Of a stretch of 64,000 bases of DNA, positions 15,556 through 58,404 are shown piece after piece. Position 1 is the stretch's first letter. Every line of letters begins with the position of its first letter. The position numbers and the translations under genes were made by a program. The stretch spans positions 6,944,001 through 7,008,000 of the forward strand of contig CAVUSO010000001.1 in NCBI GenBank assembly GCA_963744145.1. The letters run 5' to 3'. The DNA comes from an uncultured cyanobacterium (GTDB lineage Bacteria; Cyanobacteriota; Cyanobacteriia; Cyanobacteriales; CAWUOF01). A model generated the notes under the pieces. The model was not told the origin of the DNA. It did no database searches and was given only the letters and a program-made list of their open reading frames with translations.

Positions 15556-18500
15556 ATGAAGAGTATAAATATTTATTTAAGTATTATTCCTATAATTGTA
15601 ACAGTTACTAATAACAGTATTATTATAGCCCAGACTATCATACCAACTGCCAATAGTACAGGTACAATAATCAAATCAGTAGGCAATCAATATAACATCC
15701 AAGGCGGTAAATTATCCGCAGATAGAACAAACTTATTCCACAGTTTTGATAAATTTGGACTGAATACAGGTCAAATTGCTAATTTTATTTCTACTCCACA
15801 AATTCGTAACATTTTAGGAAGAGTAACGGGAGGAGAAGCCTCTATTATTAATGGTCTAATTAAAGTAACTGGTGGAGATACTAACTTATTTTTAATGAAT
15901 CCAGCAGGAATTGTATTTGGAAATAATGCGAGTTTGAATGTTACTGCATCATTTACTGCCACAACTTCTACAGGAATTGGATTCAATAATAATCAATGGT
16001 TTAATGCTGTTGGTAATAATAATTATAGTAATTTAATGGGAAATCCATTCCAATTTGCCTTTGATTTAACTAAGTCAGGAAATATTATCAATTCCGGAAA
16101 GTTAACCGTATCAATGGGAGAAAATTTAACATTATTAGGCGGTAACGTAATTAATACAGGGGAACTGACAGCACCTTCGGGTAATATTACTATTACTGCT
16201 GTCCCAAATCAGAATGTTGTAAAAATATCGCAACCTGGAAATATTCTAAGTCTAGAAATCGCACCACCACGAGATAATAATGGGCAAATATTACCAATAA
16301 ATTCTGTAGATTTACCAACTTTGCTAACAGGAACAGCTAAGAATGTAGATACAGGATTGAGTGTCAATACATTTGGTAATGTGCAATTAAATCAGTCAGG
16401 AATGATTTTACCAAATGAGCAAGGGGTAGCAATTACAGCAGGGAATATTTCAGTAGCAGGAATAAAGGGAAATTCAGTAGGTGGAAATGTAAATATTTTA
16501 GGTGACAAAGTAGGAGTATTTAATAGCAATATAGATGCTTCTGGTGTTGCTGGAGGGGGAACAGTAAGAATTGGTGGAGATTATCAAGGAGGGGGAATTT
16601 TACCTCATGCCACCCAAACTATTGTTGCACCCGATGCTAGTATTACTGCTAATGCAACAGGAATAGGAAATGGCGGCAAAGTAATAGCTTGGTCTGATAA
16701 TTTAACTCAATATTATGGCAATATAACTGCCCGTGGTGGTGTGAATGGTGGCGATGGCGGATTAGTAGAAACTTCAGGAAAAGACTTACTGATTTTTACA
16801 GGTGGGGTAGATGCGGGTGCAACATTAGGAAAACCAGGAACTTTACTCCTTGATCCCAAAAATATTACTATTACGGCTAGTTCACCCCTAACTACTATTT
16901 TTAACCCCAATACATCAGGTAGCTATTTTGGCTATTCAGTAGCCACAGATGGAAGCAACCTACTGGTTGGAGCATATCAGAACACATCGGGGGGAGTCTC
17001 ACAAGCAGGACAAGCCTTTTTGTTTAATACCAGTGGGTCGCTGTTGCAAACTTTCAATAACCCCAATCCTGTAACATCTGGCTGGTTCGGCAATTCAGTA
17101 GCTATATCAGGAAGCAACCTACTGATTGGGGCACCAAATAATACATCGGGGGGAGTCTCACAAGCAGGACAAGCCTTTTTGTTTAATACCAGTGGGGGGC
17201 TGTTACAAACTTTCGATAATCCCAATCCTGTAACACCTGGCAACTTCGGCTGGTCAGTAGCTATATCAGGAAGCAACCTACTAATTGGGGCAAATGGTAA
17301 CACATTGGGGGGAGTCTCACAAGTAGGACAAGCCTTTTTGTATAATACCAGTGGGGGGCTGTTGCAAACTTTCAATAACCCTAATCCTGTAACAGGTGGC
17401 AGCTTTGGCAGTGGAGTAGCTATATCAGGAAGCAACCTACTAATTGGGGCAGGAGGTAACACATCAGGGGGCGTCACATTTGCAGGACAAGCATTTTTGT
17501 TTAACACCAGTGGGGGGCTGTTGCAAACTTTCAATAACCCCAATCCTGTATTATTTGGATTATTCGGCAATTCATTAGCTATATCAGGAAGCAACCTACT
17601 AATTGGGGCAGGAGGTAACACATCGGGAGGAATCCAATTTGGAGGACAAGCCTTTTTGTTTAATACCAGTGGGATGTTACTGCAAACTTTCGATAACCCC
17701 AATCCAGGACCAACTGGCTTCTTCGGCTTGTCTGCAACTGCTATATCAGGAAGCAACCTACTGATTGGAGCAGCACTTAACACATCGGGGGGAGTTTCAG
17801 CAGCAGGACAAGCCTTTTTGTTTAATACCAGTGGGGGGCTGTTACAAACTTTCGATAATCCCAATCCTGTAGTAGGTGGCGAATTCGGCTTTTCTGCAGC
17901 TATATCAGGAAGCAACCTACTGGTTGGGGCACTAAATAATACATCGGGAGGACAAGCATTTTTTGGTAGTCCAACCTATCCAGGAGTATTATCTTTTAGT
18001 GATAATCCTAGTGCTTCAGTTAATGTTAATCCTACTGATATTACTAATGTTACCAATACAGGTACTAATGTGGTACTCCAGGCACATAATGATATTACGG
18101 TTGCCCAATCAGTTATCACCTCTGCTGGGGGAAATGGTGGTGCACTTACACTGCAAGCAGGACGCAGTATTTTAGTTAATGCCAATATCACTACCGATAA
18201 TGGAAATTTAACTCTAGTAGCGAATGAAACTGCCGCTAATGGAGTGCTAAGTCAATATCGAGATCCCGGTTTTGCTAATATTACCGTTGCACCTGGAGTC
18301 ATACTTAATTCTGGTACAGGTGATACGACAATTCGCATTAATACTGGTGTGGCTACAGGTAGTGGTGGTAATATTAGTTTGCAAAATATTATTGCTAACA
18401 ATCTGCTCGTCGAGAACTTAGGAGCTAGTAACAGTAACATTATTTTAAATACTCCCTTGACTTTGACCGGAAATATTACTTTAAATGCGAATGGAGATGT

Positions 18501-21454
18501 AATTACTCAATCGCTGACAACTCCGAAGAATAGCATTAGTATTACGAGCAATTTAGGTCAAATTGATACAACTAACGGCCCGCTTGATACTAGCTCAACT
18601 GGTGCGGGGGGAGATGTAACTTTAACAGCAAATCATCTCGGCATTATGACAGGTAATATTAATAGTAATTCTACCGGAAGTGGTAAAGGAGGAAATATCA
18701 CTATTACCAGTGGGGATGCGATCGATACCACTCTAGGAACTTTGAATTCTAGTTCAATGACAGGTCAAGGTGGAGATATTACCTTGAATGCGAATAGCAA
18801 TATAAAAATCGCTAATCTCAATACAAATAGCAATCTTAGTAGCGGAGCCGGAGGAAATATTACTCTCACTAGTAATGGCGGCTTAATTACTAATGTAGCT
18901 GGGACGATTAATGCAACTGCAAATTCAGGTAATGGCGGAAATATATCCCTAATGAGTACCAGCGATATTATCATCAATAATAATATCAATAGCAATTCTA
19001 ATGGGACGGGGAAAGGAGGAGATATTTCTTTAAATAGCACTCAGGGTGCGGTGCAGATTAATTCTCTCAATTCAACTTCAGCTTTTGGAAATGGTGGCAA
19101 TTTAACGATTAATGCGGCTCAGGATATTAAAGGATTGCTGCTCTTTGCTGATGCGACTAAAGGTCAGGGAGGAAATATTAGTTTCACTAGCACTAATGGA
19201 GCAATTAACATTAGTTCTCTCAGTGCTAATTCTCATAATTCTCAAGGTGGAACCTTATTTCTCCAAGCGAATGGCAATATCACCACGGGAGATTTAAGTG
19301 CTAAAGGGATTACGGGCATTAGTCAAGGTGGTCAGATTTCTATTATTAGTAAAAATACCGCGATCGCTGTAGGCAATATTACCACAACTGGTACAACAAG
19401 TGGGGGAAATATATCGTTACAAGCGAGTACCCAAATTACTACTAAACAAATTGATTCTAGTAGCATTAATGGAGCAGGTGGTAATCTCCTGATTAACTCC
19501 ACGGGAGATGTACAAGTGAGTAATATTAATACTTCTGGTCAGACAACGGGAGGTAATGTAGATATTACCGCAGATACATATTTGCGAGTAAATATACCCC
19601 TAACTATAGCTAATTGTGGCACAGTGAGTATTTGCACGATCGATAATAGTCAAGGAGGGAATATATTTCTCAGACATGGTGGTGATGGGGTGGTTCCATT
19701 TATCGTGGGAGATGCAACGCTCAATGGTACAGCAAGTGCAATATATAAAGGAAATGGGACAGAACAAAAGATTACGAGCGGTTCCTTCTTAGGAACTCAA
19801 GTGCAAGATAACGGGACACTGGGAATTATTACTAAGACCCCTGCTATATCCACCCCAACACCTGCTCCAACATCAACATCGACATCAACATCAACCTTTG
19901 CAACATTTGTACCAACACCAATACCAACACCAATACTAACACCAATACCAACCTCTGCTCTCACATTAACACCAACACCAACACCAACACCAACATTAAC
20001 ACCAACACTAACACCAACATTAACACCAACACTAACACCAACATCAACATCTGTACCAATAGAGGAGCATCAGAATAATTTAAATATCAATCCTGTGGAT
20101 TTAACTAAATTACCAGATCACCTAGATTCTTCCTCATTGTTCCAAGATGATACTTCTCAAAATTTGACCATTGATAAATCAATGAGTCAAGAATATACGA
20201 AGTATTTTGAGTCTAGCTGATATGGCAGAATTAAATACTAATAAAATCCGAGAGTCTCTGACTAATATTGAAAGACATACTGGGATTAGGCCCGCAATTA
20301 TTTATGTATTTTTTGCGCCTAGCACAATTACTCCTGTCCCTATCAATCATGATCTAAAAATTAATGAAAATACCTTAAAAGAACGAAATTTAGGGTTGTT
20401 AAGAGCGGGAATACCGGAAACCCAAGATCATTTAGAATTAATTTTAGTCGCAGCAGGTTCTCACCCAATTCGCAAGTCCTTAAATGTGACTAGAACTGAA
20501 GTTCTCGCGACTGCTAAAAAATTTCAGGATGCCATAGCTGACCAAAAAATCACGCGAGAATATGTAGTGCCAGCTCAACAAATGTATCAATGGTTAGTCG
20601 CTCCTTTAGCCAGGAATTTACAAGAATTGAATATTCAAAATTTGGTCTATATCATGGATCAGAAACTGCGGACTCTACCTTTAGCAGCGATGCAAGATGG
20701 TAAAGGTTTTCTGATTGAACACTATAGTGTGGGATTAATGCCAAGTTTTGCCCTGACTGACCCCAGTTATCAGGATATTCACCAGGCTCAATTATTGGCA
20801 ATGGGTAGCACTAATTTCTCGGAAGTCTTCCATCTCGGTACTTTACCATCAGTCAAAGCGGAAGTAAATTTGGCGCATCAAATTTGGGGAGGTAAATCTT
20901 TTCTGAATGACGAATTTACCCTGGAAAACTTAAAATCTCAACGGGAACATCATCCCTTTAGAATTGTCCATTTAGCTACCCATGCTGACATTGATCCAGG
21001 TACAGCAGACGACTCTTATCTTTATTTTACGAAGGAAAGATTATCTCTGCCTAATTTGCGTTCAATTAAGTGGAATAATCCCCCAGTGGAACTATTAGTT
21101 TTAAGTGCTTGTCAGACCGCAGTAGGAGATGAAGATGCAGAATTAGGTTTTGCGGGATTAGCAGTCCAATCTGGGGTGAAATCAGCCTTAGCTTCCTTAT
21201 GGCATATTTCCGATGAAGGTACTCTGGGATTAATGACGGAGTTTTACGAGCAACTGAAAACAGCACCAATAAAAGCCGAAGCTTTACGTCGCGCTCAGTT
21301 AGCAATGATGCGAGATAAAGTGCGCTTAGAAGCAGGAAAGTTAGTCACCAGTCAGCAATCTTTTCCCTTACCTCCTGAGTTAGTTGAGTTGCATCACCAA
21401 TTCAGTCATCCTTATTATTGGAGTGGGTTTACCATTATTGGTAATCCTTGGTAA
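15556..21454 (+). CDS. Array copy A: TPS/FHA N-terminal domain + 7 FG-GAP-like blades + beta-helix + Pro/Thr linker + CHAT protease; +1 frameshift at ~20210
   Basis: NLFHSF, NPAGIVFG and GTLLLDPKNITI in ORF 15556..20220; HLATH, LSACQTA, ASLW and HPYYWSGF in ORF 20207..21454. The sequence reads TTTGAGTCTAGCT where paralogues have TTTGGGCTAGCT. Confidence 0.88.
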
Positions 21455-21505
21455 ATTCACCGACTCGATCGATCTTGGTCTTTGGACCATCCCCAATGGT
21501 AACCT

Positions 21506-24500
21506 ATGAAACATTTCCTCCAGATTATTAACGGGTGTTTAACAATTTTCCCTGTAGGGATGATATGTGCTAATATTTGTCCTGGGTTAACACAATCCAT
21601 TATTCCTACTCGCAACGCTACGGGGACCTTAGTTACACCTGTAGGTAATAAATATAATATTAATGGCGGTACTCTTTCGGGCGATCGCACCAATTTATTC
21701 CACAGTTTTGATAAATTTGGACTTTCCACAGGTGAAACCGCCAATTTTATCTCTAGTCCAGGAATTCGCAATATTTTAGGGAGAATTAGCGGGGGAAATC
21801 CTTCCTTAATTAACGGATTAATTCAAGTAACGGGAGGGAATTCTAACTTATTTTTAATCAATCCTGCGGGCATTGTCTTTGGCTCTAATGCGAGTTTAAA
21901 TGTGCCCGCATCTTTTACCGCAACCACAGCGACAGGAATTGGATTTAGTAATAATCAATGGTTCAATGCGATCGGCAATAATAACTATAACAACTTAATC
22001 GGAACACCATCGCAATTTACCTTTGATTTCGCCAAATCAGGAAATATTATCAACGCGGGAAACTTAACCGTACCAGTCGGAGCAAATTTAACCTTACTGG
22101 GTGGTAATGTAATTAATACTGGACAATTGACTGCTCCTGCGGGAAATATTACTATTAATGCTGTGCCAAATCAGAATGTAGTAAAAATCTCGCAACCCGG
22201 ACATATATTAAGTTTAGAAATTGCACCTCCACGAGATTCTACTGGGCAAATATTGCCGATCGCACCTGCCGATTTACCTACTTTACTAACAGGAACAGCA
22301 AAGAATATAGATACAGGGTTGAGTGTTAATGCCAGTGGTAATGTGCAATTAAATCAGTCGGGCATAATTTTACCAAATAAGCAAGGTTTAGCAATTACAA
22401 CAGGGAATATTTCGGTAGCAGGAATAAGTGGAAATTCAGTAGGGGGAAATGTAAATGTTTTAGGAGATAAATTAGGAGTATTTAATAGCAATATCGATGC
22501 TTCTGGCGCTACGGGAGGAGGAATAGTAAGAATAGGTGGAGATTATCAAGGAGGAGGAACTTTACCCCATGCTAGTCAAACAATAATTGCGACCGACTCT
22601 AGTATTAATGCTAATGCCACAGAGACAGGAAATGGTGGAAAAGTAATAGTCTGGTCAGATAGTTTTACCAGTTATTATGGCAATATCACTGCTCGTGGAG
22701 GAGTCAAAGGTGGGGATGGTGGTCTAGTTGAAACTTCAGGCAAAAACTTACTAATTTTTACTGGAGGAGTAGATGCGGGAGCAAATTTAGGTAAACCAGG
22801 AACATTATTGCTTGATCCGAAAAATATCACCATTACTAATGTTAACTCACCCTTAGTTACACTTACCAACCCCAACCCTGTAGCAGGTAGCTTCGGTCTT
22901 TCAGTTGCAGTAACGAATGACAACAAGCTCTTGGTTGGTGCTTACCTTAACACATCGGGGGGATACACAGCAGCAGGACAAGCTTTTTTGTTTAATAGCA
23001 GCGGTGGACTGATCACAACTTTAGACAATCCCAATCCTATAGCAAATGGACAGTTCGGGTCTCAAGTTGCCGTAACAAGTAACAACAACCTGTTGATCGG
23101 CGCTCCTTCCAACCAACAATCGGGGGGGAGTATCATAGCAGGACAAGCTTTTTTGTTTAATAGTAGCGGTAATCTGCTCCGAACTTTAGACAATCCTGTT
23201 CCTTCAGGAGGATTCTTCGGATGGTCAGTAGCTGGAGTGGGCAGTAACTTGTTGATTGGAGCACCTTACAACCAACAATCGGGGGGGAGTACCATAGCAG
23301 GACAAGCCTTTTTGTTTAATAGTAGTGGTAATCTGCTACAAACTTTAGATAATCCCAATCCTGTAACAAATGGAGGATTCGGATGGTCAGTTGCCGCAGC
23401 AGGTAATAACCTCTTGATCGGCGCTCCTTACAACACATCGGGGGGATTACCATCTGCAGGACAAGCGTTTTTGTTTAACAGTAGTGGTAATCTGCTGCAA
23501 ACTTTAGACAACCCTAACCCTGTCTATGCTGGAGAGTTCGGATATTCAGTTGCCGGAGTAGGTAACAACCTGTTGATCGGAGCGTGGAACAATACATCGG
23601 GAGGATTACCATCTGCAGGACAAGCGTTTTTGTTTAACAGTAGTGGGACACTGTTGAAAACTTTAGATAATCCTAACCCTTATACGCCTGCAATGCTTGG
23701 AAATTTCGGAAATTCAGTTGCCGGACTAGGTAGTAATCTGTTGATCGGGGCCTATCAAAACACATCGGGGGGATTTACCGGAGCAGGGCAAGCTTTTTTG
23801 TTTAATAGCAATAATAGTAGTATTAATAATGGGCTACTACAAACATTTGATAATCCTAATCCTGCAACAAATGGCAACTTTGGTGCTTTCGTTGCCGCCG
23901 CAGGTAATAACCCGCTGGTCGGAGCTATTGGTAATGGAGTCTCAGGAGCAGGACAAGCGTTTTTGGTTAGTCCGACCTATCCAGGAGCATTATCTTTTAA
24001 TGACAATCCCAGTGCTTCAGTTAATGTTGATCCGATTAATATTACTAATGTTACTAATACGGGCACTAATGTCGTACTTCAAGTACATAATGATCTGACT
24101 GTTGCCCAACCAGTGATTACCTCTGCGGGAGGACATGGTGGAGCGATTACCCTGCAAGCAGGACGCAGTATTTTAGTTAATGCCAACATCACTACCGATA
24201 ATGGAAATTTAACTCTAGTTGCGAATGAAACTGCGGCTAATGGAATTCTAAGTCAATATCGAGATCCCGGTTTTGCTAATATTACCGTTGCACCTGGAGT
24301 CATACTTAATTCTGGTACAGGTGATACGGCAATTCGCATTAATACTGGTGCGGCGATCGGCAGTGGTGGTAATATTAGTTTGCGAAATATTATTGCTAAC
24401 AATCTCCTAGTCGAGAATTTAGGAGCTAGCAACAGCAACATTATTTTAAATACTCCCCCGACTTTGACCGGAAATATTACTTTAACTGCGAATGGAAATG

Positions 24501-27431
24501 TAACTACTCCGTCGCTGACAACTCCGGGTAATAGCATTAGTATTACGAGCAATTTAGGTCAAATTGATACAACTGGGGGCACTATTGATAGTAGCTCAAC
24601 TGGTGCGGGGGGAGATGTAACTTTAACAACAACTAATCTCGCCATTATTACAGGTAATGTTAATAGTAATTCTACTGGGAGTGGTAAAGGAGGAAATATC
24701 ACTATTACCAGTGGGGATGCGATTGATACCACTCTAGGAACTTTGAATTCTAGTTCAATGACAGGTCAAGGTGGAGATATTACCTTGAATGCGAATAGCA
24801 ATATAAAAATCGCTAATCTCAATACAAATAGCAATCTTAGTAGTGGAGCTGGGGGAAATATTACCCTGAATAGTAATGGCGGTTTAATTACTAATATAAC
24901 TGGGACGATTAATGCAACTGCAAATTCAGGTCATGGGGGAAATATATCCCTAATGAGTACCAGCGATATTATCATCAATAAGAATATCAATAGCAATTCT
25001 AATGGGACTGGGAACGGAGGAGATATTTCTTTAACTAGCACGAGTGGTGCGGTGCAGATTAATTCTCTCAATTCAACTTCAAAGTTTGGGAATGGTGGAA
25101 ATTTAACGATTAATGCTGCTAATAATATTAAAGGATTGCTGCTCTTTGCTGATGCGACTAAAGGTCAGGGAGGAAATATTAGTCTCACTAGCACTACCGG
25201 AGCAATTAATATTAGTTCGCTGAGTGCTAATTCTAATAATGCTCAAGGTGGAACCTTATTTCTCCAAGCGAATAGCAATATCACTACAGGAGATTTAAGT
25301 GCTAAAGGGATTACGGGGATAAGTCAAGGTGGTCAGACTTCTATTATTAGTAAAAAAGCCGCGATCGCGATTGGTAATATTACCACAAATGGTCCAGCAA
25401 GTGGAGGAAATATCTCCTTACAAGCTAGCACCCAAATTACGACTAAACAAATTAATTCTAGTAGCATTAATGGAGCAGGTGGTAATGTGCTAATTGACCC
25501 TACGGGAGATGTGCAAGTGAGTAATATTAATACTGCTGGTCAGACAACAGGAGGAAATGTGGATATTACCGCAGGTACATATTTGCGAGTAAATGTACCT
25601 CTAACTACAGCTAATTGCGGTACAGTGAGTATTTGCACAATTGGTAATAGTCAAGGAGGGAATATATTTCTCAGACATGGGGGTGATGGAGTAGTTCCAT
25701 TTATCGTGGGAGATGCAACGCTCAATGGTACAGCTAGTGCAATATATAAGGGAAATAGTTCAGAACAAAAGATTAATAGTGGTTCCTTCTTGATGACTCA
25801 ATTGCAAGATAACGGGACACTGGGAATTATTACTAAGACCACTGCTATACCAACACCAACACCTGCACCAACATCAACATCAACATCAACATCAACCCTT
25901 GCAACATTTGTACCAACACCAGTACCAACATCTACTCTAATACCAATACCAACACCAACACCAATACCAACACCTGCACCAACACCAATACCAACAACAA
26001 CACTAATACCAACACCTACTCCAACACCTGTACCAATAGAGGAGCATCAGAATAATTTAAACATTAATCCTGTAGATTTAACTAAATTACAAGATCATCT
26101 AGATTCTTCCCTATTGTTCCAAAATGATACTTCTCAAAATTTGGCAATTGATAAATCAATGAGTCAAGAATATACTCAATATTTTGGGCTAGCTGATGTG
26201 GCAGAATTGAGTGTTAGTAAAATCCGAGAGTCTCTGACTAATATTGAAAAACATACTGGGATTAAGCCCGCAGTTATTTATGTATTTTTTGCGCCTAGTA
26301 CGATTACTCCTGTCCCTATTAATAGCGAAGTAAAAATTACTGAAAATCCCTTAAAAGAACAAAATTTAGGTTTGTTAAGAGCGGCAATACCGGCAGCCCA
26401 AGATCATTTAGAATTAATTTTAGTCACAGGAAGTTCTCACCCAATTCGCAAGTCCTTAAATGTGACTAGAGAGGAAGTTCTTGCGACTGCTCAAAAATTT
26501 CAGGATACAGTAGCTGACCAAAAAATGACGCGAGAATATCTGGTGCCATCGCAAAGAATGTATCAATGGTTAGTCGCTCCTTTAGAACAGAATTTACAAG
26601 CATTGAATATTCAAAATTTGGTCTATATCATGGATCAGAAACTCCGCACTCTTCCTTTAGCAGCAATGCGGGATGAGAAAAGTTTTCTGATTGAACGCTA
26701 CAGTGTGGGATTAATGCCAAGTTTTGCCCTGACTGACCCCAGTTATCAGGATATTCATAGTTCTCAATTATTAGCAATGGGTAGCACTAATTTCTCGGAT
26801 GTCTTCCATCTCAGTGCTTTACCATCCGTGAAAGCGGAAGTAAATTTGGCGCATCAAATTTGGGGAGGTAAATCTTTTCTGAATGATCAATTTACCCTGG
26901 AAACCTTAAAATCTCAACGGGAACATCATCCCTTTACAATTGTCCATTTAGCTACCCATGCTGACGTTAATCCGGGTACAGCCGATGACTCTTATCTTTA
27001 TTTTACGAAGGAAAGATTACCTCTGCCTAATTTACGTTCAATTAAGTGGAATAATCCCCCAGTAGAACTATTAGTTTTAAGTGCTTGTCAGACCGCAGTA
27101 GGAAATGATAATGTGGAGTTAGGTTTTGCCGGATTAGCAGTCCAATCTGGGGTGAAATCAGCTTTAGCTTCCTTATGGCATATTTCTGATGAAGGTACTC
27201 TAGGATTAATGACGGAGTTTTACGAGCAATTAAAAACAGCACCAATTAAAGCCGAAGCTTTACGTCGCGCTCAGTTAGCTATGATGTCACCATGAAGTGC
27301 GTTTACAAGCAGGAAAGTTAGTCACCAGTAAGCAATCTTTTCCCTTACCTCCTGAGTTAGTTAATTTGCATCACCAATTCAGTCATCCTTATTATTGGAG
27401 TGGGTTTACCATTATTGGTAATCCTTGGTAA
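21506..27431 (+). CDS. Array copy B: TPS + 7-blade propeller + beta-helix + Pro/Thr + CHAT; +1 frameshift at ~27287 cuts off the last ~47 aa
   Basis: 1929 aa ORF ends at 27295; the paralogous tail EVRLQAGKLV...HPYYWSGFTIIGNPW continues in another frame to 27431. Confidence 0.9.
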
Positions 27432-27482: not shown

Positions 27483-27716
27483 ATGAAACATTTACTCCAG
27501 ATTATTAACGGGTGTTTAACAATTTTCCCGCTAGGGATGATATGTACTAATATTTGTCCTGGGTTAGCACAATCTATTATTCCTACTCGCAACGCTACGG
27601 GCACCTTAGTTACACCTGTAGGTAATAAATATAATATTAATGGTGGTACTCTTGCGGGCGATCGCACCAACCTATTCCACAGTTTTGATCAATTTGGACT
27701 TTCCGCAGGTGAAACC
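27483..27716 (+). pseudogene. 5' remnant of an array copy (signal peptide and start of TPS domain)
   Basis: MKHLLQIINGCL...NLFHSFDQFGLSAGET is near-identical to copies B and C; homology stops at 27716. Confidence 0.9.
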
Positions 27717-27744
27717 TTCTGCTGCCAATCTGCAAAAAATTACG

Positions 27745-29080: not shown

Positions 29081-29084
29081 AGCC

Positions 29085-46203: not shown

Positions 46204-49200
46204 ATGAAAAAAAGTATTGTAAAGATTATTAACGGACACTTGATAATTGGCACCATATGTATATGTATTGGTAATAGTGATCCTGGATTAGCACAATCTA
46301 TTATTCCCACTAGCAACGCGACAAACACATTAGTGACCCCAGTAGGGAATAAATATAATATTAACGGTGGGATGCTGTCGGGCGATCGCACCAACCTATT
46401 CCATAGCTTTGATAAATTCGGACTTTCCGCAGGAGAAACAGTCAATTTTATCTCTAATCCCCAAATTCGCAATATTTTAGGGAGAGTTACGGGGGGAAAT
46501 CCATCCCTAATTAACGGACTAATCCAAGTAACAGGAGGGAATTCTAACTTATTCTTAATCAATCCTGCGGGAATAGTATTTGGCACTAATGCGAGTTTAA
46601 ATGTGCCAGCATCTTTTACCGCAACTACAGCGACAGGAATGGGATTTAGTAATAATCAATGGTTCAATGCTTTTGGCAATAATAATTATAGTAATTTAAT
46701 TGGAACGCCATCTCAATTTGCCTTTGATTTAGCGAAATCGGGAAACATTATCAACGCGGGAAAATTAACCGTACCGCTCGGCTCAAATTTAACATTACTA
46801 GGTGGTAATGTAATTAATACTGGACAATTGACTGCACCTTCTGGAAATATTACGATTACGGCTGTCCCTAATCAGAATGTAGTCAAAATCTCGCAACCTG
46901 GAAATATTCTAAGTTTAGAAATTACACCACCAAGAGATACCACTGGTCAAATCTTGCCGATCGCTCCCGTCGATTTACCGACATTGCTAACGGGAACAGC
47001 CAATAATATAGAGACAGGTTTGAGTGTAAATGCAAGTGGTAATGTGCAAGTAAATCAGTCCGGCATAATTTTGCCTAATGTTTCAGGGTTAGCGATCGCA
47101 ACAGGGAATATTTCTGTAGCAGGAGTAACCGGAAATGCGGTAGGTGGAAATGTCAATGTTTTAGGAGATAAAGTAGGGTTATTTAATAGCAATATCGATG
47201 CTTCAGGTGTTGGGGGAGGGGGAACAGTAAAAATCGGTGGAGATTATCAAGGAGGGGGAACTTTACCCCATGCTACTCAAACGATTATTGCACCTGATGC
47301 AAGTATTAACGCTAATGCAACAGAAACAGGAAATGGCGGGAAAGTAATAGTTTGGTCAGATAATTTTACTAGAGATTATGGCAATATTATTGCTCGTGGT
47401 GGCGTCAGTGGTGGCGATGGTGGTCTGGTCGAAGTTTCTGGTAAAGATTTGCTAATCTTTACCGGAATGGTAGATGCGGGAGCAACGTTAGGTCAACCAG
47501 GAACCTTACTCCTTGATCCCAAAAATATCACCATTACTAACTCACCCCTAGCAACTATGCTTTTAAACCCCTATCCTTTGCCATTTGGCGTGTACAGCTA
47601 TGATTTAGCCTCAGATGGCAATAACGTATTAGTCGGGGCAATCTATAACACATCAGGAGGGGTCTTAGCAGCAGGTCAGGCATTTTTATTTAACACTAGC
47701 GGATCGCTATTGCAAACTTTCAATAACCCCAATCCTACATCAAATGGTCAATTCGGTATTGGAGTTGCGATATCTGGCAATAACGTGTTAATCGGGGCAA
47801 GTTGTAACACATCGGGAGGGTTCTCAGGCGCGGGCCAAGCCTTTTTGTTTAACACCAGCGGATCGCTACTGCGAACTTTCAATAACCCTAATCCTGTAAT
47901 AAATGGCAGTTTCGGCACTTCAGTTGCGATATCGGGCAGCAACCTGTTGATTGGAGCAAGTGGTAACACATCACTAGGGTTCTCAGGCGCGGGCCAAGCT
48001 TTTTTGTTTAACACCAGTGGATCGCTACTGCAAACTTTCAATAACCCCAATCCTGTAATAAATGGCAATTTCGGCATTTCAGTGGCGATGTCTGGTAGCA
48101 ACCTGTTGATCGGGGCAAATGGTAACACCTCACTAGGGGTCACAGCAGCAGGACAAGCCTTTTTATTTAATACTAGCGGATCGCTATTGCAAACGTTCAA
48201 TAACCCCAATCCTGCATATGGCAGCTTCGGCACTTCAGTGGCGATGTCTGGTAGTAACCTGTTGATCGGAGCAGATACTAACACATCAGGAGGAGTCCCA
48301 CAAGCAGGACAAGCATTTTTGTTTAACACTAGCGGATCACTACTGCAAACTTTCGATAACCCCAATCCTGTATCAAGTGGCAGCTTTGGTCAGTCAGTAG
48401 CTATATCCGGTAGCAACCTATTAATCGGAGCTCCGGATAACACATCAGGAGGTTACTCACAAGCAGGACAAGCCTTTTTGTTTAACACTAATAATAATCT
48501 ACTGCAAACCTTGAATAGTCCATTGCCGCAATCAAGTGGCAATTTTGGGTGGGCAGTTGCTTTGGTAGGTAGTAACATATTCGTAGGAAGCTTAAGTGAA
48601 ACATCACAAGGGGTATTAGGAGCAGGAAACAGCTATTTCATGACTGCTGCCTATTCTGGAGTTCTATCTTTTAGTGATAATCCCAGTTCTTCGGTTAATG
48701 TTGATCCGATTAATATTACTAATGTTACCAATACGGGCACTCATGTGGTACTCCAGGCACACAATGATATTACTGTTGCCCAACCAGTGATTACCTCTGC
48801 GGGGGGAAATGGTGGTGCACTTGCTCTCCAAGCAGGACGTAGTATTCTAGTTAATGCCAACATCACCACGGATAACGGCAATTTAACCCTAAGTGCGAAC
48901 GAAACTGCGGCTAATGGAGTTCTAAGTCAATATCGAGATCCTGGTTTTGCTAATATTACCGTTGCACCTGGAGTCACACTTAATTCTGGTACAGGTGATA
49001 CAACAATAAGGATTGCTACGGGGGCAACTCCAGGAAGTGGTGGTAATATTAGTTTGCAAAATATCACTGCGAAAAATTTGCTGGTAGAGAACTTAGGATT
49101 TGGCAACAGCAACATTATCTTAAATACTCCCCTTACTCCCACCGGAAATGTTACCCTAACTGCCAATGGGGATGTGACTACTCAGGGGATTACAACTCCG

Positions 49201-52126
49201 GGTAATAGCATTAGTATTACGAGCAATTTAGGTCAAATTGATACGACTGGAGGCACTATTGATACTAGCTCAACTGGTGCGGGTGGAGATATAACTTTAA
49301 CAGCAACTAATCTCGGTATTAGGACAGGTAATATTAATAGTAATTCGACCGGGAGTGGTCAAGGAGGAAATATCACTCTTACCAGTGGGGATGCGATCGA
49401 TACTACTCTAGAAACTTTGAATTCTAGTTCAGGGACAGGAAAAGGTGGAGATATTACCTTTAATGCGAATAGCAATATACAAATCGCTAATCTCAATACG
49501 ACTAGCAATGGGAGTGGTGCAGGGGGAAATATTACCCTGAATACTACGGGAGGCTTAATTACGAATCCGACTGGAACGATTACTTCAACTTCAACTTCAG
49601 GTCAGGGAGGGAATATTTTCCTAATAAGTGCTAGCGATATTATTCTTAACAAGAATATTAATAGCAGTTCTAATGGTACTGGTAAAGGAGGAGATATTTC
49701 TTTAACTAGCACTCAGGGGGCGGTGCAGATTAATTCTCTTAATTCAACTTCAGCATTTGGAAATGGTGGAAATTTAACAATTAATGCTGCTCAGGATATT
49801 AAAGGATTATTGCTCTTTGCTGACGCGACTAAAGGTCAGGGAGGAAATATTAGTCTCACTAGCAATACTGGAGCAATTAATATAAGTTTACTCAGTGCTA
49901 ATTCTAATAATTCTCAAGGTGGAACATTGTTTCTAAATGCGAATGGGAATATTACCACGGGAGATATAAGTGCTAAAGGGATTACGGGAATTAGTCAAGG
50001 TGGTCGGACTTCTATTACCAGTAAAAACGCTGCGATCGCTGTAGGTAATATCACTACAACTGGTGCAGCAAGTGGGGGAAATATATCCTTACAAGCTAGC
50101 ACCCAAATTACGGCTAAACAAATTGATTCTAGTAGCATGAATGGAGCGGGTGGTAATGTACGAATTGACCCCATAGGAGATGTGCAAGTGAGTAATATTA
50201 ATACTGCTGGTCAGACAACTGGAGGTAATGTAGATCTTACAGCAGGTACATATTTACGAGTAAATATCCCTGTCACTATAGCTAATTGTGGCACAGTGAG
50301 TATTTGCACAATTGGTAATAGTCAAGGAGGAAATATATTTCTCAGACATGGGGGTGATGGGGTAGTTCCATTTATCGTGGGAGATGCAACAATCAATGGT
50401 ACAGCTAGTGCGATCGATAAAGGAAATGGGACAGAAGAAAATATAACGAGCGGTTCCTTCTTAGGAACTCAATTGCAAGATAACGGGACACTGGGAATTA
50501 TTACTAAGACCCCTGTTATACCCACCCCAACACCTGCTCCCACATCAACATCAACATCAACCTTGGTAACATTTGTCCCAATATCAACACCTATATCAAC
50601 ACCTATATCAACACCTATTCCAACACCTATTCCAACTTCTGCTCCCATATCTGCACTAACATCTACACCAATACCAATACCAACCCTAATACCATTACCC
50701 ACCCTAACACCTACTCCAACACCTGTACCAATAGAGGAGCATCAGAATAATTTAAATATTAATCCTGTGGATTTAACTAAATTACCAGATCACCTAGATT
50801 CTTCCCCATTGTCTCAAGATGATACTTCTCAAAATTTGGCAATTGATAAATCCATGAGTCAAGAATATACGAAGTATTTTGCGCTAGCTGATGTAGCAGA
50901 ATTAAATACTAATAAAATCCGAGAGTCTCTGACCAATATAGAAAAACATACTGGGATTAAACCCGCAGTTATTTATGTATTTTTTGCAGCCTAGCACAAT
51001 TACTCCTGTCCCGATTAATCACGATATCAAAATTACTGAAAATACCTTGAAAGAACAAAATTTAGGGTTGTTAAGAGCGGGAATAGCGGAAACCCAAGAT
51101 CATTTAGAATTAATTTTAGTCCCAGCGGGTTCTCACCCCATACGCAAGTCCTTAAATGTCACTAGAGCCGAAGTTCTTGCGACTGCTAAAAAATTTCAGG
51201 ATACCGTAGCAGATCAAAAAAATACGCGAGCATATCTAGTCCCTGCTCACCAAATGTATCAATGGTTAGTTGCTCCTTTGGAACAGAATTTACAACAATT
51301 AAATATTCAAAACTTAGTCTATATCATGGATCAGAAGCTGCGGACTGTACCTTTAGCAGCAATGCAAGATGAGCAAGGTTTTATAATTGAACGCTACAGT
51401 GTGGGATTAATGCCAAGTTTTGCCCTGACTGACACGAGTTACCAGAATATTCACAATGCTCAATTATTGGCAATGGGTAGCACTAATTTCTCAGATATTT
51501 TTCATCTGGGTACTTTACCATCAGTCAAAGAAGAAGTAGATTTGGCACATCAAATTTGGGGAGGTAAATCTTTTCTGAATGACGAATTTACCCTAGAAAA
51601 CTTAAAATCCCAACGAGAACATAATCCCTTTAGAATCGTTCATTTAGCTACCCATGCGGACATTAATCCCGGTACAGAAGCCGACTCTTATATTTATTTT
51701 ACTAAAGAAAGATTATCCCTACCTAATTTACGTTCAATTAAGTGGAATAATCCCCCAGTAGAACTATTAGTTTTAAGTGCTTGTCAGACCGCAGTAGGAA
51801 ATGACAATGTGGAGTTAGGTTTTGCGGGATTAGCAGTTCAATCTGGAGTGAAATCAGCACTAGCTTCCTTATGGTATATTTCTGATGAAGGTACTCTGGG
51901 ATTAATGACAGAGTTTTACCAGCAATTAAAAACAGCACCAATTAAAGCTGAAGCTTTACGTCGCGCTCAGTTAGCAATGATGCGTGGTGAAGTGCGCTTA
52001 GAATCTGGGAAGTTAGTCACCAGTAAGCAATCGTTTCCCTTACCTCCTGCGATCGCTAATTTACATCACCAATTAAGACATCCTTATTATTGGAGTGGAT
52101 TTACAATTATTGGTAATCCTTGGTAA
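46204..52126 (+). CDS. Array copy F: TPS + 7-blade propeller + beta-helix + Pro/Thr + CHAT; +1 frameshift at ~50988
   Basis: ORFs 46204..50994 and 50975..52126; the sequence reads TTTGCAGCCTAGC where paralogues have TTTGCGCCTAGC or TTTGCACCTAGC. Confidence 0.88.
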
Positions 52127-52229: not shown

Positions 52230-55200
52230 ATGAAAAAAAGTATTGTAAAGATTATTAACGGACCATTGATAATTGGCACCATATGTGTATGTATTGGTAA
52301 TAGTGATCCTGGATTAGCACAATCCATTATTCCTACTAGCAACGCGACAAACACCTTAGTGACCCCAGTAGGGAATAAATATAATATTAACGGTGGGATG
52401 CTGTCGGGCGATCGCACCAACCTATTCCACAGTTTTGATAAATTTGGACTTTCCACAGGTGAAACAGCCAATTTTATCTCTAATCCCCAAATTCGGAATA
52501 TTTTAGGAAGAGTTACGGGAGGAAATCCCTCCTTAATTAACGGACTAATCCAAGTAACAGGAGGGAATTCTAACTTATTTTTAATCAATCCTGCGGGAAT
52601 TGTATTTGGCACTAATGCAAGTTTAAATATCCCCGCAGCTTTTACCGCAACCACAGCGACAGGAATTGGATTTAATAATAATCAATGGTTCAATGCGATC
52701 GGCAATAATAACTATAACAATTTCATCGGAACACCATCGCAATTTGCCTTTGATTTAGCGAAATCGGGAAACATTATCAACGCGGGAAAATTAACCGTAC
52801 CGCTCGGCTCAAATTTAACCTTACTAGGTGGTAATGTAATTAATACTGGACAATTGACTGCACCTTCTGGAAATATTACGATTACGGCTGTCCCTAATCA
52901 GAATGTAGTCAAAATCTCGCAACCCGGAAATATCCTAAGTTTAGAAATCGCCCCACCACGAGATGCCACGGGGCAAATATTACCGATCAATCCCGTTGAT
53001 TTACCGACGTTGCTAACGGGAACAGCCAAGAATATAGAGACAGGTTTGAGTGTCAATCCAACGGGCAATGTGCAGTTAAATCAGGTAGGAGTTATTTTAC
53101 CTAATGAGCAGGGTTTAGCCATTACATCAGGGAATATTTCAGTAGCTGGAATAACTGGAAATGGAGTGGGGGGAAATGTCAATGTTTTAGGGGACAAAGT
53201 AGGGTTATTTAATAGTAATATAGATGCTTCTGGTGCGACGGGAGGGGGAATAGTAAGAATCGGTGGAGATTATCAAGGAGGGGGAACTTTACCCCATGCT
53301 ACCCAAACGATCATTGCACCAGATGCGAGCATCAATGCTAATGCCACAGCTACAGGAAAAGGTGGCGAAGTAATAGTTTGGTCAGATAATTTTACCAATT
53401 ATGATGGCAATATCACTGCTCGTGGTGGGAGCAAGGGTGGTAATGGCGGATTAGTAGAAACTTCGGGAAAAGACTTATTAATTTTTACGGGAGGAGTAGA
53501 TGCGGGTGCAGCATTAGGAAAGCCAGGAACATTACTACTTGATCCTAAAAATATCACGATTACTAATGCTAGCTCACCTCTAGTAACTATGCTAAACCCC
53601 AATCCGATCAATCCAGCTCTGTTTGGTACTTCAGTAGCTTCAGATGGTAACAACCTGCTGATCGGAGCACCAGATAACACATCGGGGGGTATTGGTCTAG
53701 CAGGGCAAGCCTTTTTATTTAACACCAGTGGGTCGCTGCTGCAAACTTTCAATAACCCCAATCCAGTACCAAGTGGCCACTTAGGTTATGCAGTTGCTAT
53801 ATCCGGTAGCAATCTTTTGATCGCAGCATCCAGAAACACATCGGGAGGAGTCACAGGAGCAGGACAAGCCTATTTGTTTAATCCTAGTGGGCAACTGCTA
53901 CATACTTTCGATAATCCCAATCCTGTAGTAAATGGTGACTTTGGCTATGGACTTACTATATCGGGCAGTAACCTTTTGATCGGGGCTTATGGAAACACAT
54001 CTGGAGGGATCACACACGCAGGACAAGCCTTTTTGTTTAACACCAGTGGAACGCTACTACAAACTTTCGATAATCCTAATCCTGTAATCAATGGCTACTT
54101 CGGCTATTCAAGTGCTATATCCGGCAGCAACTTGTTGATTGGAGCAATTGGCAACACATCGGGGGGGCTCCCATCGCAGGGCAAGCTTTTTTGTTTAATA
54201 CCAGTGGGGCATTGCTGCAAACTTTCGATAATCCTAATCCTGTAGCCAATGGCTACTTCGGCTTTTCAGTTGCTATATCGGGCAGCAATTTGTTGATTGG
54301 AGCGCCTAAAAACACGTCGGGGGGAGTCACTAATGCTGGGCAAGCCTATTTATTTAACACTGGTGGAGCGCTGCTGCAAACTTTTAATAACCCCAATCCT
54401 GTCACAGGTGGCGCAAATGGCAACTTTGGCATTTCAGGTGCTATATCCGGTAACAACCTATTGATCGGGGCGTCAGGAAATACATCGGGAGGGTTTACGC
54501 AAGCAGGGCAAGTCTTTTTGTTTAATCCTAACAATAATCTCCTGCAAACCTTTAATAGCCTAAATCCACAAACTTCTGGTAATTTTGGGGCATCAGTTAC
54601 TCCTGTAGGTAGCAATATATTAGTAGGAGCCTACGGCGAAACTTCAGGAGGAGTACCGACGGCAGGAAACAGCTATTTAATGGGTGCTGCTTATCCTGGT
54701 GTCCTGTCTTTTAATGATAATCCCAGTCAATCAATTAATGTTGATCCTATCAATATTACTAGCGTTACCAATACGGGTACTAATGTGGTACTCCAGGCAC
54801 ATAATGATCTTACTGTTGCCCAACCAGTTATTACCTCTGCGGGGGGAAATGGTGGTGCATTTACTCTCCAAGCAGGACGCAGTATTCTCGTTAATGCTAA
54901 CATCACCACGGATAACGGGAATTTAACTCTAGTTGCGAATGAAACTGCGGCTAATGGAGTGCAAAGTCCATATCGAGATCCGGGTTTTGCTAATATTACC
55001 GTTGCACCTGGAGTAATACTTAACTCTGGTACGGGTGATACCACGATTCGGATTAATACGGGTACGGCTACAGGTAGTAGTGGTAATATTAGTTTGCAAA
55101 ATATCACTGCGAAAAATTTGCTGGTAGAGAATTTAGGATTTGGCAATAGCAACATTATCTTAAATACTCCCCTGACTCCCACCGGAAATATTACCTTAAC

Positions 55201-58177
55201 TGCGAATGGGAATGTGACTACTCAGTCGCTGACAACTTCGGGGAATAGCATTAATATTACTAGCAATTTAGGTCAAATTGATACAACTAGCGGCACCCTT
55301 GATACTAGCTCAACTGGCTCGGGTGGAGATATAACTTTAGCAGCAAATAATCTCGGCGTTATCACAAGTAATATTAATAGTAATTCGACCGGGAGTGGTC
55401 AAGGAGGAAATATTACAATTACCAGTGGGGATGCGATCGATACCACTTTAGGAACGCTAAATGCTAGTTCAGAGACAGGTAAAGGTGGAGATATTATCTT
55501 AAATGCGAATAGCAATATCAAGATCGCTAATCTTAGTACAAATAGCAATCTTAGTAGTGGAGCCGGAGGCAATATTACCCTCACTACTACCGGCGGCTTA
55601 ATTACTAATACGTCTGGAACGATTAATGCAACTGCAAATTCAGGTAATGGCGGAAATATCTCACTAATGAGTACCAGCGATATTATTATCAATAATAATA
55701 TCAATAGCAGTTCTAATGGGACGGGGAAAGGAGGAGATATTTCTTTCACTAGCACTCAGGGTGCGGTGCAGATTAATTCTCTCAATTCAACTTCAGCGTT
55801 TGGAAATGGTGGCAATTTAACGATTAATGCTGCTAATGATATTAAAGGATTGTTGCTCTTTGCTGATGCGACTAAAGGTAATGGAGGAAATATTAGTCTC
55901 ATTAGCACTACTGGAGCAATTAATATTAGTTCGCTCAGTGCTAATTCTAATAATGCTCAAGCTGGAACCTTATTTCTCCAAGGGAATGGCAATATTACCA
56001 TAGGAGATTTAAGTGCTAAAGGGATTACGGGAATTAGTCAAGGTGGTCAGACCTCTATTATTAGTAAAAATGCCGCGATCGCTGTGGGTAATATTACCAC
56101 AACTGGTGCGGCAAGTGGAGGAAATATATCCATCCAAGCTAGTACCCAAATTACGACTAAACAAATTGATTCGAGCAGCACTACTGGAATGGGTGGTAAT
56201 CTGCTGATTGACCCCACGGGAGATATTCAAGTGAGTAATATTAATACTTCTGGGGGCACAATTGGAGGGAATGTGGATGTTACCGCAGGTAAATATTTGC
56301 GAGTAAATGTGCCCTTAACTACAGCTAATTGCGGCACATTTAGCGTTTGCACAATTGGTAATACTCAAGGAGGAAATATATTTCTCAGACATGGTGGTGA
56401 TGGGGTAACTCCTTTTATCGTGGGAGATGCTACAATCAATGGTACAGCTAGTGCAATATATAAGGGAAATAGTGCAGAACAAACTATTACTAGCGGTTCA
56501 TTCTTGACTACTCAATTACAAGACAATGGGACATTAGGAATTATTACTAATACTCCTTCTACACCAACACCAACACCCACATCCACACCTACACCTACAC
56601 CTACACTTACATTTACACCCACACCGATACCAACACCCACACCTACATTTACATCCACCCCAATATCCACCCCAATATCCACTCCAATATCCACACCAAT
56701 ATCCACACCAATATCCACCCCAATATCCACACCAACATCCACCCCAACATCCACACCAACATCCACCCCAATATCCTCAAATAGCGATCGCAATAATTTA
56801 GCAGCAATTAATCCAGTCGATTTAACCCAATTCCAATATCAACTAAAATCTTTACCATTACTAGATAATGCTAATTCCCAAAATCTCGCGATCGATAAGT
56901 CGATGAGCCAAGAATATACCAAATATTTTGGTCTGGCTGATTTGCCGGAAATTAGTGTGGGTAAAGTTCAAGAATCTTTAAGCAATATTGAAAATCAAAC
57001 TGGGATTAAGCCCGCAGTTATTTATGTATTTTTTGCACCTAGCACGGTTATTCCTGTCCCGATTAATCACGAGGTAAAAATTACTGAAAATCCCTTACAA
57101 GGACAAAATTTAGGTTTGTTACGATCGCGAAGCCAGGAGGAACAAGATCATTTAGAATTAATTTTAGTCACCGCCGGTTCTCATCCAATTCGCAAGTCCT
57201 TAAATGTGACTAGAGCCAAAGTGATCGCAACTGCTAAAAGATTTCAGGATACCGTAGCCGACCAAAAAATCATCGAAAAATATTATCTGGTGCCGGCTCA
57301 ACAAATGTATCAATGGTTAGTCGCTCCTTTAGAACAGAATTTACAACAATTGAAGATTCAAAATTTGGTCTATATCATGGATCAGAATCTGCGGACTATT
57401 CCTTTAGCGGCGATGCACGATGGTCAAGGTTTTATCATTGAACGCTACAGTGTGGGATTAATGCCAAGTTTTGCCCTGACTGACCCCAGTCACCAGGATA
57501 TTCATGATGCTCAATTATTGGTAATGGGTAGCACTAATTTCTCGGATGTTTTCCATCTGCGTGCTTTACCATCAGTCAAAGCGGAAGTAGACTTAGCCCA
57601 TCAACTTTGGCGAGGTAAATCTTTTCTCAATGACCAGTTTACCCTAGAAAACTTAAAATCCCAACGCGAACATCATCCCTTTAGAATCGTCCATTTAGCT
57701 ACCCATGCTAACGTTAATTCCGGCAACGCAGCCGAGTCTTATCTTTATTTTACTAAAGAACAATTACCTCTACCTAATTTACGTTCCATTAAGTGGAATA
57801 ATCCCCCAGTGGAACTATTAGTTTTAAGTGCTTGTCAGACCGCAGTAGGAGATGAAAATGCCGAATTAGGTTTTGCCGGATTAGCATTCCAAACTGGGGT
57901 AAAATCAGCTTTAGCTTCCTTATGGCATATTTCCGATAAAGGTACTTTGGGATTAATGACAGAGTTTTACCAGCAATTAAAAACAGCACCAATAAAAGCG
58001 GAAGCTTTACGTCGCGCTCAATTAGCGATGATGCGAGGTGAAGTGCGTTTGGAATCGGGCAAATTAGTCACCAGTCAGCAATCGTTTCCCTTACCTCCTG
58101 AGTTAGTTAAATTCCATTACCAATTCAGTCATCCTTATTTTTGGAGTGGATTTACAATCATTGGTAATCCTTGGTAA
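52230..58177 (+). CDS. Array copy G: TPS + 7-blade propeller + beta-helix + Pro/Thr + CHAT; -1 frameshift at ~54175 within the propeller
   Basis: ORFs 52230..54245 and 54191..58177; the sequence reads CCATCGCAGG where copy B has CCATCTGCAGG. Confidence 0.88.
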
Positions 58178-58404
58178 TTCCGAAATCTCACTCAAACTAT
58201 GGGAGAATAGATGCAGGTGGTGTGCTTGTTATAGCCTAAATCTGAATTAGATTTGCTATGCTACCTAGTAACCACTACGCATTTTACTCACAAAACGGTA
58301 ATTATATCCATAATTCTAGTGGGACTGGGAAAGGAGGAGATATTTCTTTCACTAGCACTCAAGGTGGAGTGAATATTAATTTTCTCAGTTCAACTTCAGC
58401 ATTT
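58178..58404 (+). pseudogene. Relic of a further array copy: intergenic spacer fused to a ~90-bp internal beta-helix fragment
   Basis: 58178-58311 matches the E-F spacer up to TATATCCAT; then SGTGKGGDISFTSTQGGVNINFLSSTSAF matches the beta-helix of the paralogues. Confidence 0.8.

Follow-up and report, generated by a model that had tools for sequence, protein, structure and literature searches.

What use could a filamentous cyanobacterium have for a row of long genes whose products carry a secretion domain near one end and a caspase-like protease domain at the other? The question is raised by a 64,000-nucleotide stretch of its genome (the window), of which positions 15556-58404 hold seven co-oriented paralogues of 4.9-5.9 kb, each combining a TPS (two-partner secretion) domain with a CHAT protease domain, together with the remnants of two more. 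An earlier note, made from the letters alone, had proposed seven co-oriented, near-full-length paralogues and two relics, and this count was confirmed by the map of open reading frames (ORFs), a Pfam scan and an all-against-all DNA comparison. Judged by sequence and predicted structure, the products are securely identified as exoproteins of the TpsA type that have an integrin-like head inserted and CHAT as their C-terminal protease domain. What is new here is that a propeller-bearing branch of this family occurs in a tandem array of seven to nine copies, with diversification specific to one face of the propeller. Concerning function, we tentatively favor surface filaments with variable binding heads and a protease of their own, and we weigh this reading against its rivals below. 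In the full-text literature we found no characterization of TPS-CHAT proteins, which are present there only as annotation labels, and the earlier statement that no characterized system with this layout was known therefore stands.

Architecture of the proteins and layout of the array

Copy C (29222..35134, plus strand) is intact, encodes 1970 residues and serves as the reference for domain coordinates. Its first 30 residues (29222..29311) form a hydrophobic, signal-peptide-like N-terminus ending in GLAQ, which is present in copies B-G; the N-terminus of copy A differs. The TPS secretion domain follows at aa 38-241 (29333..29944; Pfam E 1.7e-42) and shows the NPxG signature (TIGR01901 adhes_NPXG, E 2.9e-23). 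Over aa 38-459, phmmer matched the solved TpsA adhesins EtpA (2e-27) and HMW1 (1e-13), and the EtpA/HMW1-like helix extends to about aa 459. Just past GTLLLDPKNITI (aa 431-442) begins an FG-GAP propeller of seven blades (aa 460-835, 30599..31726), which was recovered by Pfam and in the AlphaFold (AF2) model, and whose seven FG-GAP repeats are visible in the sequence. A second beta-helix of Gly-rich repeats, with a fold match to EtpA, occupies aa 851-1442 (31772..33547), of which aa 851-1020 were modeled. The model of aa 31-1020 is strand-rich, with a mean pLDDT of 79.6 and values mostly above 90 in the propeller blocks; when it was compared with known structures by Foldseek, the propeller matched integrin alpha headpieces (5e-15) and the helical parts matched EtpA (8e-13). 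A homodimer prediction for the propeller head gave a score of 0.00, which is evidence in neither direction. By sequence comparison the propeller is an inserted module, because in same-genome paralogues that lack it the TPS helix (to about aa 452) leads straight into the second beta-helix (from about aa 477), and the earlier placement of the propeller right after GTLLLDPKNITI is upheld by the same paralogues.

The C-terminal third consists of a Pro/Thr-rich linker of about 70 residues (approximately aa 1443-1512, 33548..33757), whose length differs among the copies, a conserved segment of about 45 residues, and the CHAT module (aa 1560-1970, 33899..35131) with HLATH at aa 1810 and LSAC at aa 1854. 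The module was identified by Pfam, by a structure model of residues 1560-1970 (pLDDT 88.7) and by Foldseek, which returned Csx29 of Craspase (7e-15) as well as separase, gingipains, SAVED-CHAT and the anti-sigma factor DdvA, the last with its periplasmic domain. The catalytic His and Cys are invariant in 46/46 aligned CHAT sequences, and the module is 41-60% identical across genera and 70-90% identical for rows from the same genome. The remaining copies follow this plan: GTLLLDPKNITI, HLATH and LSAC occur once each in all seven, in agreement with the earlier note for the two protease motifs, and Pfam reports TPS (PF05860, E 1e-39 to 2e-43), FG-GAP_2 (PF14312, E down to 1e-40) and CHAT (PF12770, E 1e-56 to 1e-67) in 7/7, the domains of A, F and G being distributed over two overlapping ORFs per copy. 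The earlier calls of TPS, propeller, beta-helix and CHAT thus hold in the Pfam scan and in the structure prediction of copy C. TPS, FG-GAP_2 and CHAT were the only Pfam families reported, and PT-VENN, FHA-1 and FHA-2 had no Pfam match in the array copies at E ≤ 1e-3.

Long plus-strand frames follow one after another from 15556 to 58177. Copy A (15556..21454) is read as a TPS-propeller-beta-helix ORF (15556-20220) and a CHAT ORF (20207-21454), with a lesion of +1 nt at about 20210, and in copy B (21506..27431) the ORF stops at 27295 after AMMSP, with the DNA of the last 43 codons running on to 27431. ORF map and Pfam show copies D (35186..40042, 1618 aa) and E (40156..46071, 1971 aa) to be intact, D having a shorter beta-helix that was also evident in the DNA comparison; in copies F (46204..52126) and G (52230..58177) the frame is interrupted by one extra base at about 50990 and by one missing base at about 54176, inside the propeller, respectively. 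The spacers between consecutive copies from A to G measure 51, 1926, 51, 113, 132 and 103 bp, in line with the earlier estimate of roughly 50-130 bp except at a disrupted copy; they are of two sequence types, duplicated along with the genes. What had been called the disrupted copy, between B and C, can now be specified as what is left of an eighth copy. Its first 234 nt (signal peptide and start of the TPS domain; 27483..27716, plus strand) share 94% identity with the beginning of B, and its last 86 nt (29085..29170, plus strand) share 97.7% with the end of C. In place of its interior there is an insert of about 1.37 kb (27717..29084) with an excisionase-family HTH_17 gene on the minus strand (27884-28339). 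Similar DNA with different flanks is present in an unrelated pond metagenome run, and for this reason the insert may be part of a mobile element; sequencing run X2 contained only a small share of the sequence words of the window, located on this insert. A ninth copy is represented by a tail relic, 106 nt of second beta-helix at 58299..58404 (plus strand), preceded by a spacer of the E-F type.

Divergence, integrity and relatives of the copies

The copies were compared in 60-codon windows over all 21 pairs, and the propeller was the most diverged of the large domains. Its amino acid identity is 60-74%, with dS of 1.0-1.2 and dN/dS of 0.16-0.31, whereas the TPS domain, the beta-helices and the CHAT core have identities of 80-92%, dS of 0.27-0.73 and dN/dS of 0.11-0.33. 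More variable are also the signal peptide and the linker/pre-CHAT windows (aa 1441-1680), with 55-68% identity and dN/dS of 0.31-0.53, and the CHAT module as such is under strong purifying selection (dN/dS 0.12-0.22). Between A and B, for example, the DNA is 76% identical over the first 2.1 kb and 90% identical over the last 3.4 kb. On these sequence comparisons, the propeller is the oldest and least homogenized part, with purifying selection overall, and the flanks look homogenized by recombination. The conserved protease and diversified head that the earlier note had seen are therefore both there, but because the propeller has the higher dS and is under purifying selection, part of the contrast between them reflects homogenization of the flanks and not accelerated change of the head.

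Inside the propeller, the variation is periodic along the blades. The 4-1 loops after NPNP have an entropy of 1.62 bits and a dN/dS of 0.62, with values above 1 in 6/21 pairs (26-29 codons each), the 2-3 loops before AGQ follow with 1.05 bits and 0.46, and the scaffold has 0.59 bits and 0.15. No clear positive selection was found in the propeller over the 21 pairs, and only the 4-1 loops approach or exceed a dN/dS of 1. In integrins, the 4-1 and 2-3 loops make up the ligand-binding face, and by this analogy the pattern supports a variable predicted binding face on a constant frame.

Since the earlier note had named an over-expanded assembly as one finding that would overturn its proposal, the reality of the copies needs to be considered. 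The paralogues are real and the array is no over-expanded repeat, since the copies differ from one another by 10-24% in DNA and each has its own support in the short-read contigs of run X1. In that run, contigs at least 97% alike fill 30/30 bins of 15500-35200, and 160/177 contigs are at least 99% alike. A joint from 31018 to 23303 in X1 was considered as a deletion and rejected: it matches the offset between copies B and C (7716) with 35 shared letters, and was read as a graph crossing between paralogues.

The frame breaks had escaped the earlier note, whose near-full-length description holds for all seven copies. In the assembly, C, D and E alone have an unbroken frame, D without about 1 kb of beta-helix; A and F have one extra base each and G is one base short, and in B a +1 lesion (about 27290) with clustered substitutions leads to the stop 43 codons early. 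Of the four frame breaks, those in A and B are accompanied by clustered substitutions. At the lesion of copy A, one X1 contig (depth 4.6) lacks base 20210 and has C at 20212, which restores the KYFGLAD consensus; at the lesion of copy B, X1 lists no difference, at a position where its coverage is not established. Broken frames are also found elsewhere in the genome. In a random sample of 40 from 974 adjacent ORF pairs on the same strand, in different frames and outside the TPS and CHAT families, five pairs were halves of one gene, namely of PEP carboxylase, a Ser/Thr protein kinase, a GT4 glycosyltransferase, an M50 site-2 protease and a nonribosomal peptide synthetase (NRPS). The two ORFs of PEP carboxylase (C1:4154431-4157482) match profile positions 1-456 and 454-919, and a GH116 glycosidase gene near TpsB is likewise in two frames (L004:9503-11930). 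Because PEP carboxylase and other genes appear split, the assembly very likely carries indel errors, and frameshifts anywhere in the genome therefore call for caution. We accordingly distrust the breaks in the array, and the number of intact copies may lie anywhere between three and seven. The short-read version of the A lesion creates a GGCC site, and we guess that the breaks may stem from consensus errors at methylated motifs of a long-read assembly.

The architecture as such belongs to a very large cyanobacterial family that, by sequence search, carries generic names only. A search of 5.8 billion proteins gave 2915 matches at E ≤ 1e-3 among 8000 candidates scored. Among the 120 matches listed, all have CHAT and 118 have TPS too, two having CHAT alone; every one is named either 'CHAT domain-containing protein' or 'filamentous hemagglutinin family protein', and the closest non-self match is 60% identical. 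The propeller is present in 65 of these 120; elsewhere the middle consists of DUF5649 or DUF5650 repeats, of two propellers or of nothing recognizable. As the earlier note had proposed, the architecture was surveyed across cyanobacteria: the propeller class was found in 19/401 genomes of the same order (14/142 genera), 11 of the 19 in one family, in a survey that scored at most three candidates per genome and thus shows presence and not copy number. The five best other genomes have 1-3 propeller-class genes each, dispersed, in draft assemblies in which arrays could be collapsed. A separate search with the CHAT module gave 78 related loci from other cyanobacteria, and since none has a propeller, copy numbers of the propeller class are not derivable from them; fused TPS-CHAT genes stand in tandem pairs at 8/78. 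Papers on Nostoc extracts and diel expression mention CHAT proteins in passing only, and nothing relevant was found in the exoproteome literature. In Nostoc 7120, a mutation in a protein with a filamentous-hemagglutinin N-terminal domain is reported to confer phage resistance (PMC10811720).

The genome has ten propeller-class copies: the seven of the array, intact single copies at C1:2581637 and C1:7046788, and one (C1:7197372-7205266) with an interruption of about 1.9 kb that holds a minus-strand 421-aa ORF without a Pfam match. Immediately upstream of this interrupted copy is a gene for a DDE_3 transposase. In a quick tree of 55 of the 71 available propeller rows, all ten same-genome propellers fall in one clade (SH-aLRT 99), and in a more careful tree of 55 of 126 CHAT rows, nine of the ten same-genome CHAT modules do so (100/100). 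The exception is the solitary copy at C1:7046788-7052835, which combines a propeller of the local clade with a CHAT module of another lineage, and because its two parts group apart, heads and protease tails have recombined. Taken as a whole, the array looks, from sequence comparison, like an unusually large, lineage-specific tandem expansion of one branch of a common TPS-CHAT family.

Candidate functions and genomic partners

Genome-wide profile counts gave 56 TPS matches, 85 CHAT matches and two ShlB-type transporters above cut-off. The two TpsB genes are located at C1:7081270-7083126 and C1:827354-829177, and the former is followed directly, on the same (minus) strand, by a TPR-CHAT gene with a signal-like N-terminus (both within C1:7078610-7083126). 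Because this gene directly follows one of only two TpsB genes, it suggests a third, proteolytic partner in two-partner secretion. The coupling is more general: 17/42 TPS-only ORFs have a CHAT-only ORF no more than 5 kb away, where 2000 random placements gave 3.0 on average and 10 at most; the count takes in the halves of array copies with broken frames. Hydrophobic signal-like N-termini were found in 14/15 TPR-CHAT proteins examined, including all 10 whose genes neighbor a TPS or TpsB gene. The TPS-only proteins form another subfamily, with 31-43% identity in the TPS domain alone and a C-terminal region of their own. DUF928 genes of this genome are no more than 5 kb from a CHAT gene in 10/16 cases and CHASE2 genes in 6/16 (chance mean 1.4 each). 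In the related loci of other cyanobacteria, CHASE2 is found within 10 kb of TPS-CHAT in 14/78 and DUF928 in 11/78, and a TpsB gene stands beside TPS-CHAT in 6/78. Recurrent clusters join tandem TPS-only exoprotein genes, TPR-CHAT, DUF928 and a CHASE2 sensor, as at C1:3634410-3649815, 353430-372930, 7034274-7043265 and 7335548-7351270.

With these partners in mind, we tentatively favor the reading that the array encodes surface filaments exported by two-partner secretion, whose binding heads vary and which bring along a protease for their own processing or release. We infer secretion, topology, protease activity, substrate and ligand as follows. First, the protein would cross the inner membrane by Sec, and its TPS domain would be recognized at the outer membrane by one or the other of the two TpsB transporters (ShlB/FhaC-type), whose genes are not linked to the array. 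Second, the N-terminal beta-helix, the integrin-like propeller and the long second beta-helix would form an adhesin-like fiber on the filament surface, the paralogues being a repertoire of binding heads that, by the integrin analogy, would differ mainly in two loop classes on one propeller face. Third, the CHAT module behind the flexible Pro/Thr linker would be the last part to enter the periplasm and would probably be kept there as a stopper, where it could work as an intrinsic protease for processing or release that cuts its own linker region or that of a neighbor, so that the fiber is matured or shed. We favor this reading because TPS genes couple regularly with genes for CHAT proteins with signal-like N-termini, in trans elsewhere and in cis here, because the protease is strongly conserved and no immunity genes accompany it, and because DdvA sets a precedent of linker autoproteolysis by a periplasmic CHAT: cleavage of its own flexible linker by the periplasmic TPR-CHAT part has been proposed (PMC11506125).

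Several points weigh against fibers of this kind. The window contains no TpsB gene, the nearest being about 73 kb away, downstream of the window, and four of the seven copies are frame-broken as assembled. A protease of 410 residues that is spent once per molecule would be costly, and a conserved external substrate fits at least as well as self-cleavage, because the CHAT module is conserved while the linker is variable and of low complexity. The periplasmic location of CHAT would follow from analogy with FhaB, CdiA and HMW1.

The alternative that survives best, although we consider it unlikely, is contact-dependent delivery in the manner of CdiA, in which the propeller would bind a neighboring cell, whether a bacterium or a grazer, export of the C-terminal half, kept until then in the periplasm, would resume, and CHAT would be delivered as a toxin. 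The layout invites it: an enzymatic domain stands at the C-terminal end of a TpsA protein behind a linker, a binding module lies mid-protein between two beta-helical segments like the receptor-binding domain of CdiA, and heads and tails recombine, as the copy at C1:7046788-7052835 shows. The C-terminal domain, however, is the least variable part and not polymorphic, and the pretoxin and FHA repeat families that were looked for above gave no match. The array spacers of 51-132 bp contain no ORF and have no room for one of immunity size, and no small downstream ORF family recurs in more than 6/78 related loci. C-terminal caspase-like domains are listed as possible toxins of polymorphic systems by Zhang et al. 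(2012), but their table does not give type V export for Tox-Caspase (PMC3482391).

Somewhat more doubtful is a germline surface-receptor repertoire as imagined in the earlier note, in which a ligand of the propeller would activate the tethered CHAT and a signaling substrate in the producer's own envelope would be cut, for kin or non-self recognition or for defense. Loop-focused diversity on a constant scaffold with a conserved protease speaks for it; Csx29, separase and SAVED-CHAT among the fold matches are switchable, substrate-specific CHAT proteases, and the CHASE2 and DUF928 genes near CHAT point in the same direction at the level of the family. Within about 32 kb of the array itself, in contrast, there is no gene for CHASE2, DUF928, an anti-sigma factor or TpsB, copy C matches none of the families of PADLOC-DB 2.0, and the propeller as a whole is under purifying selection. 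To our knowledge, apart from the secretion arrest of CdiA, no mechanism passes a signal along a TpsA protein to a periplasmic domain. DdvA does provide a periplasmic CHAT in signal transduction (PMC11506125). A bolder version, which we regard as improbable, is that the heads sense different foreign or kin surface structures and that engagement switches on the caspase-like protease, leading to cleavage of an envelope signaling protein or to cell death in the filament; if true, this would be a bacterial counterpart of receptor-coupled caspase activation, acting across the outer membrane via the two-partner secretion pore.

Very unlikely, in our view, is a secreted or surface protease, in which the whole protein would be exported, CHAT would degrade external proteins (matrix, nutrients, grazers or phage particles) and the propeller would target the substrate. 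The intact catalytic dyad and the gingipain-like fold relationship would suit it, gingipains act outside the cell, and LepA of Pseudomonas aeruginosa is a TPS-secreted protease. The nearest structural relatives, however, are regulated intracellular or periplasmic CHAT enzymes and not bulk proteases, an extracellular thiol protease needs protection from oxidation, and the TPR-CHAT partners of TPS genes are likely periplasmic, because they have no TPS domain of their own. The least credible explanation, that of a decaying array of mostly pseudogenes left by birth-and-death evolution with little present function, can appeal to the four frame-broken copies, the two remnants (one with its interior replaced by the mobile insert) and the interrupted tenth copy elsewhere, but it conflicts with a dN/dS of 0.1-0.3 over nearly the full length in 21/21 pairs, broken copies included, with breaks of single nucleotides of which that in A is contradicted by short-read contigs, and with the finding that PEP carboxylase and four further genes are split in the sample of 40 pairs, a sign of consensus errors.

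Currently, two-partner secretion is understood almost wholly from proteobacterial adhesins, cytolysins and CdiA toxins. The 56 TPS and 85 CHAT matches, set against two transporters above cut-off, suggest that cyanobacteria have built a large unexplored envelope system around two-partner secretion, with caspase-like proteases as regular partners. The array is a natural experiment in this respect, having near-identical stalks and proteases with heads that differ on one face, and it is suited to tests of the ligand, of the location of the protease and of its substrate. If the protease is a built-in release or signaling switch, it would represent a new type of regulation in type V secretion and a new extracytoplasmic role of CHAT.

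Neighboring genes and comparison with known systems

Upstream of the array, the gene at 14271-15398 encodes an exosortase-dependent surface protein of the XDD3 family (NCBIfam, 135 bits vs a cut-off of 80), and the array thus adjoins another predicted cell-surface protein. Further upstream, a leucine-rich-repeat protein fused to DUF6745 is encoded at 1501-2397. Downstream, a truncated DUF1822 remnant at 59014-59352 is followed at 60107-63558 by the gene of a 314-aa protein that has acidic Pro/Gln/Glu repeats and matches no family, and then by two adjacent genes for BrxD-like P-loop ATPases; this region may be a fragment of a defense island, and the ATPases, which have weak BrxD and SngB matches, are unrelated to the array protein. 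A promoter and terminator scan of 13000-22000 gave 31 promoter-like sites vs 29.0 expected and three terminator-like sites vs 6.4, which is uninformative on operon structure, and Rfam at the gathering threshold gave no match in the window. In the 78 related loci, the largest neighbor family (36/78) consisted of generic PAS/histidine-kinase/receiver proteins joined by common domains and was judged uninformative.

Among known systems, the closest solved relatives of the TPS domain and beta-helix, by sequence and fold, are EtpA of enterotoxigenic Escherichia coli (ETEC) and HMW1 of Haemophilus influenzae. Both depend on a transporter of the ShlB/FhaC type, and such transporters are encoded in this genome. 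Unlike the array proteins, however, EtpA and HMW1 have neither an inserted propeller nor a C-terminal protease, and whereas their transporter genes are adjacent to the adhesin genes, the nearest transporter here is about 73 kb from the array, with two TpsB genes for 56 TPS matches. FhaB of Bordetella, a large TpsA protein whose C-terminal part probably stays in the periplasm and is cleaved off in maturation, is the model for the proposed topology. It is cut by separate proteases, whereas in the array proteins the protease would be part of the protein itself, and phmmer showed no similarity to FhaB beyond the TPS domain.

For the head, the likeness is to the integrin alpha propeller, which has seven blades as well (TM about 0.65, normalized to the integrin headpiece), and the variable loops are of the 4-1 and 2-3 classes. 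Compared with integrin alpha, the identity is 17-20% and there is no beta-subunit partner; integrin-type Ca-binding DxDxDG loops were not noticed in the blades, which were read by eye and not by a motif search. For the protease, Csx29, separase and DdvA have the same fold over the full 411-residue module, with the His-Cys dyad conserved. The CHAT of the array differs from them in that it lacks a TPR region and is fused to a predicted secreted beta-helix, instead of being a CRISPR partner or having a membrane anchor. The split clusters of TPS and TPR-CHAT genes, with DUF928 and CHASE2, place the same two predicted activities side by side in this genome and in others; in the array, by contrast, the protease is in cis, DUF928 and CHASE2 are not nearby, and the TPS-only proteins of the clusters belong to another subfamily.

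Like CdiA, the array proteins are of the TpsA type, with a binding module between two beta-helical segments, an enzymatic C-terminus, and paralogues and relics arranged in arrays. The difference lies in the C-terminus, which is constant in the array and comes without an immunity gene, a VENN pretoxin motif or FHA-1/FHA-2 Pfam repeats. The earlier note had concluded that this layout inverts the logic of CdiA, which is only partly apt: the C-terminal enzyme is indeed the constant part here, but the receptor-binding domains of CdiA also vary.

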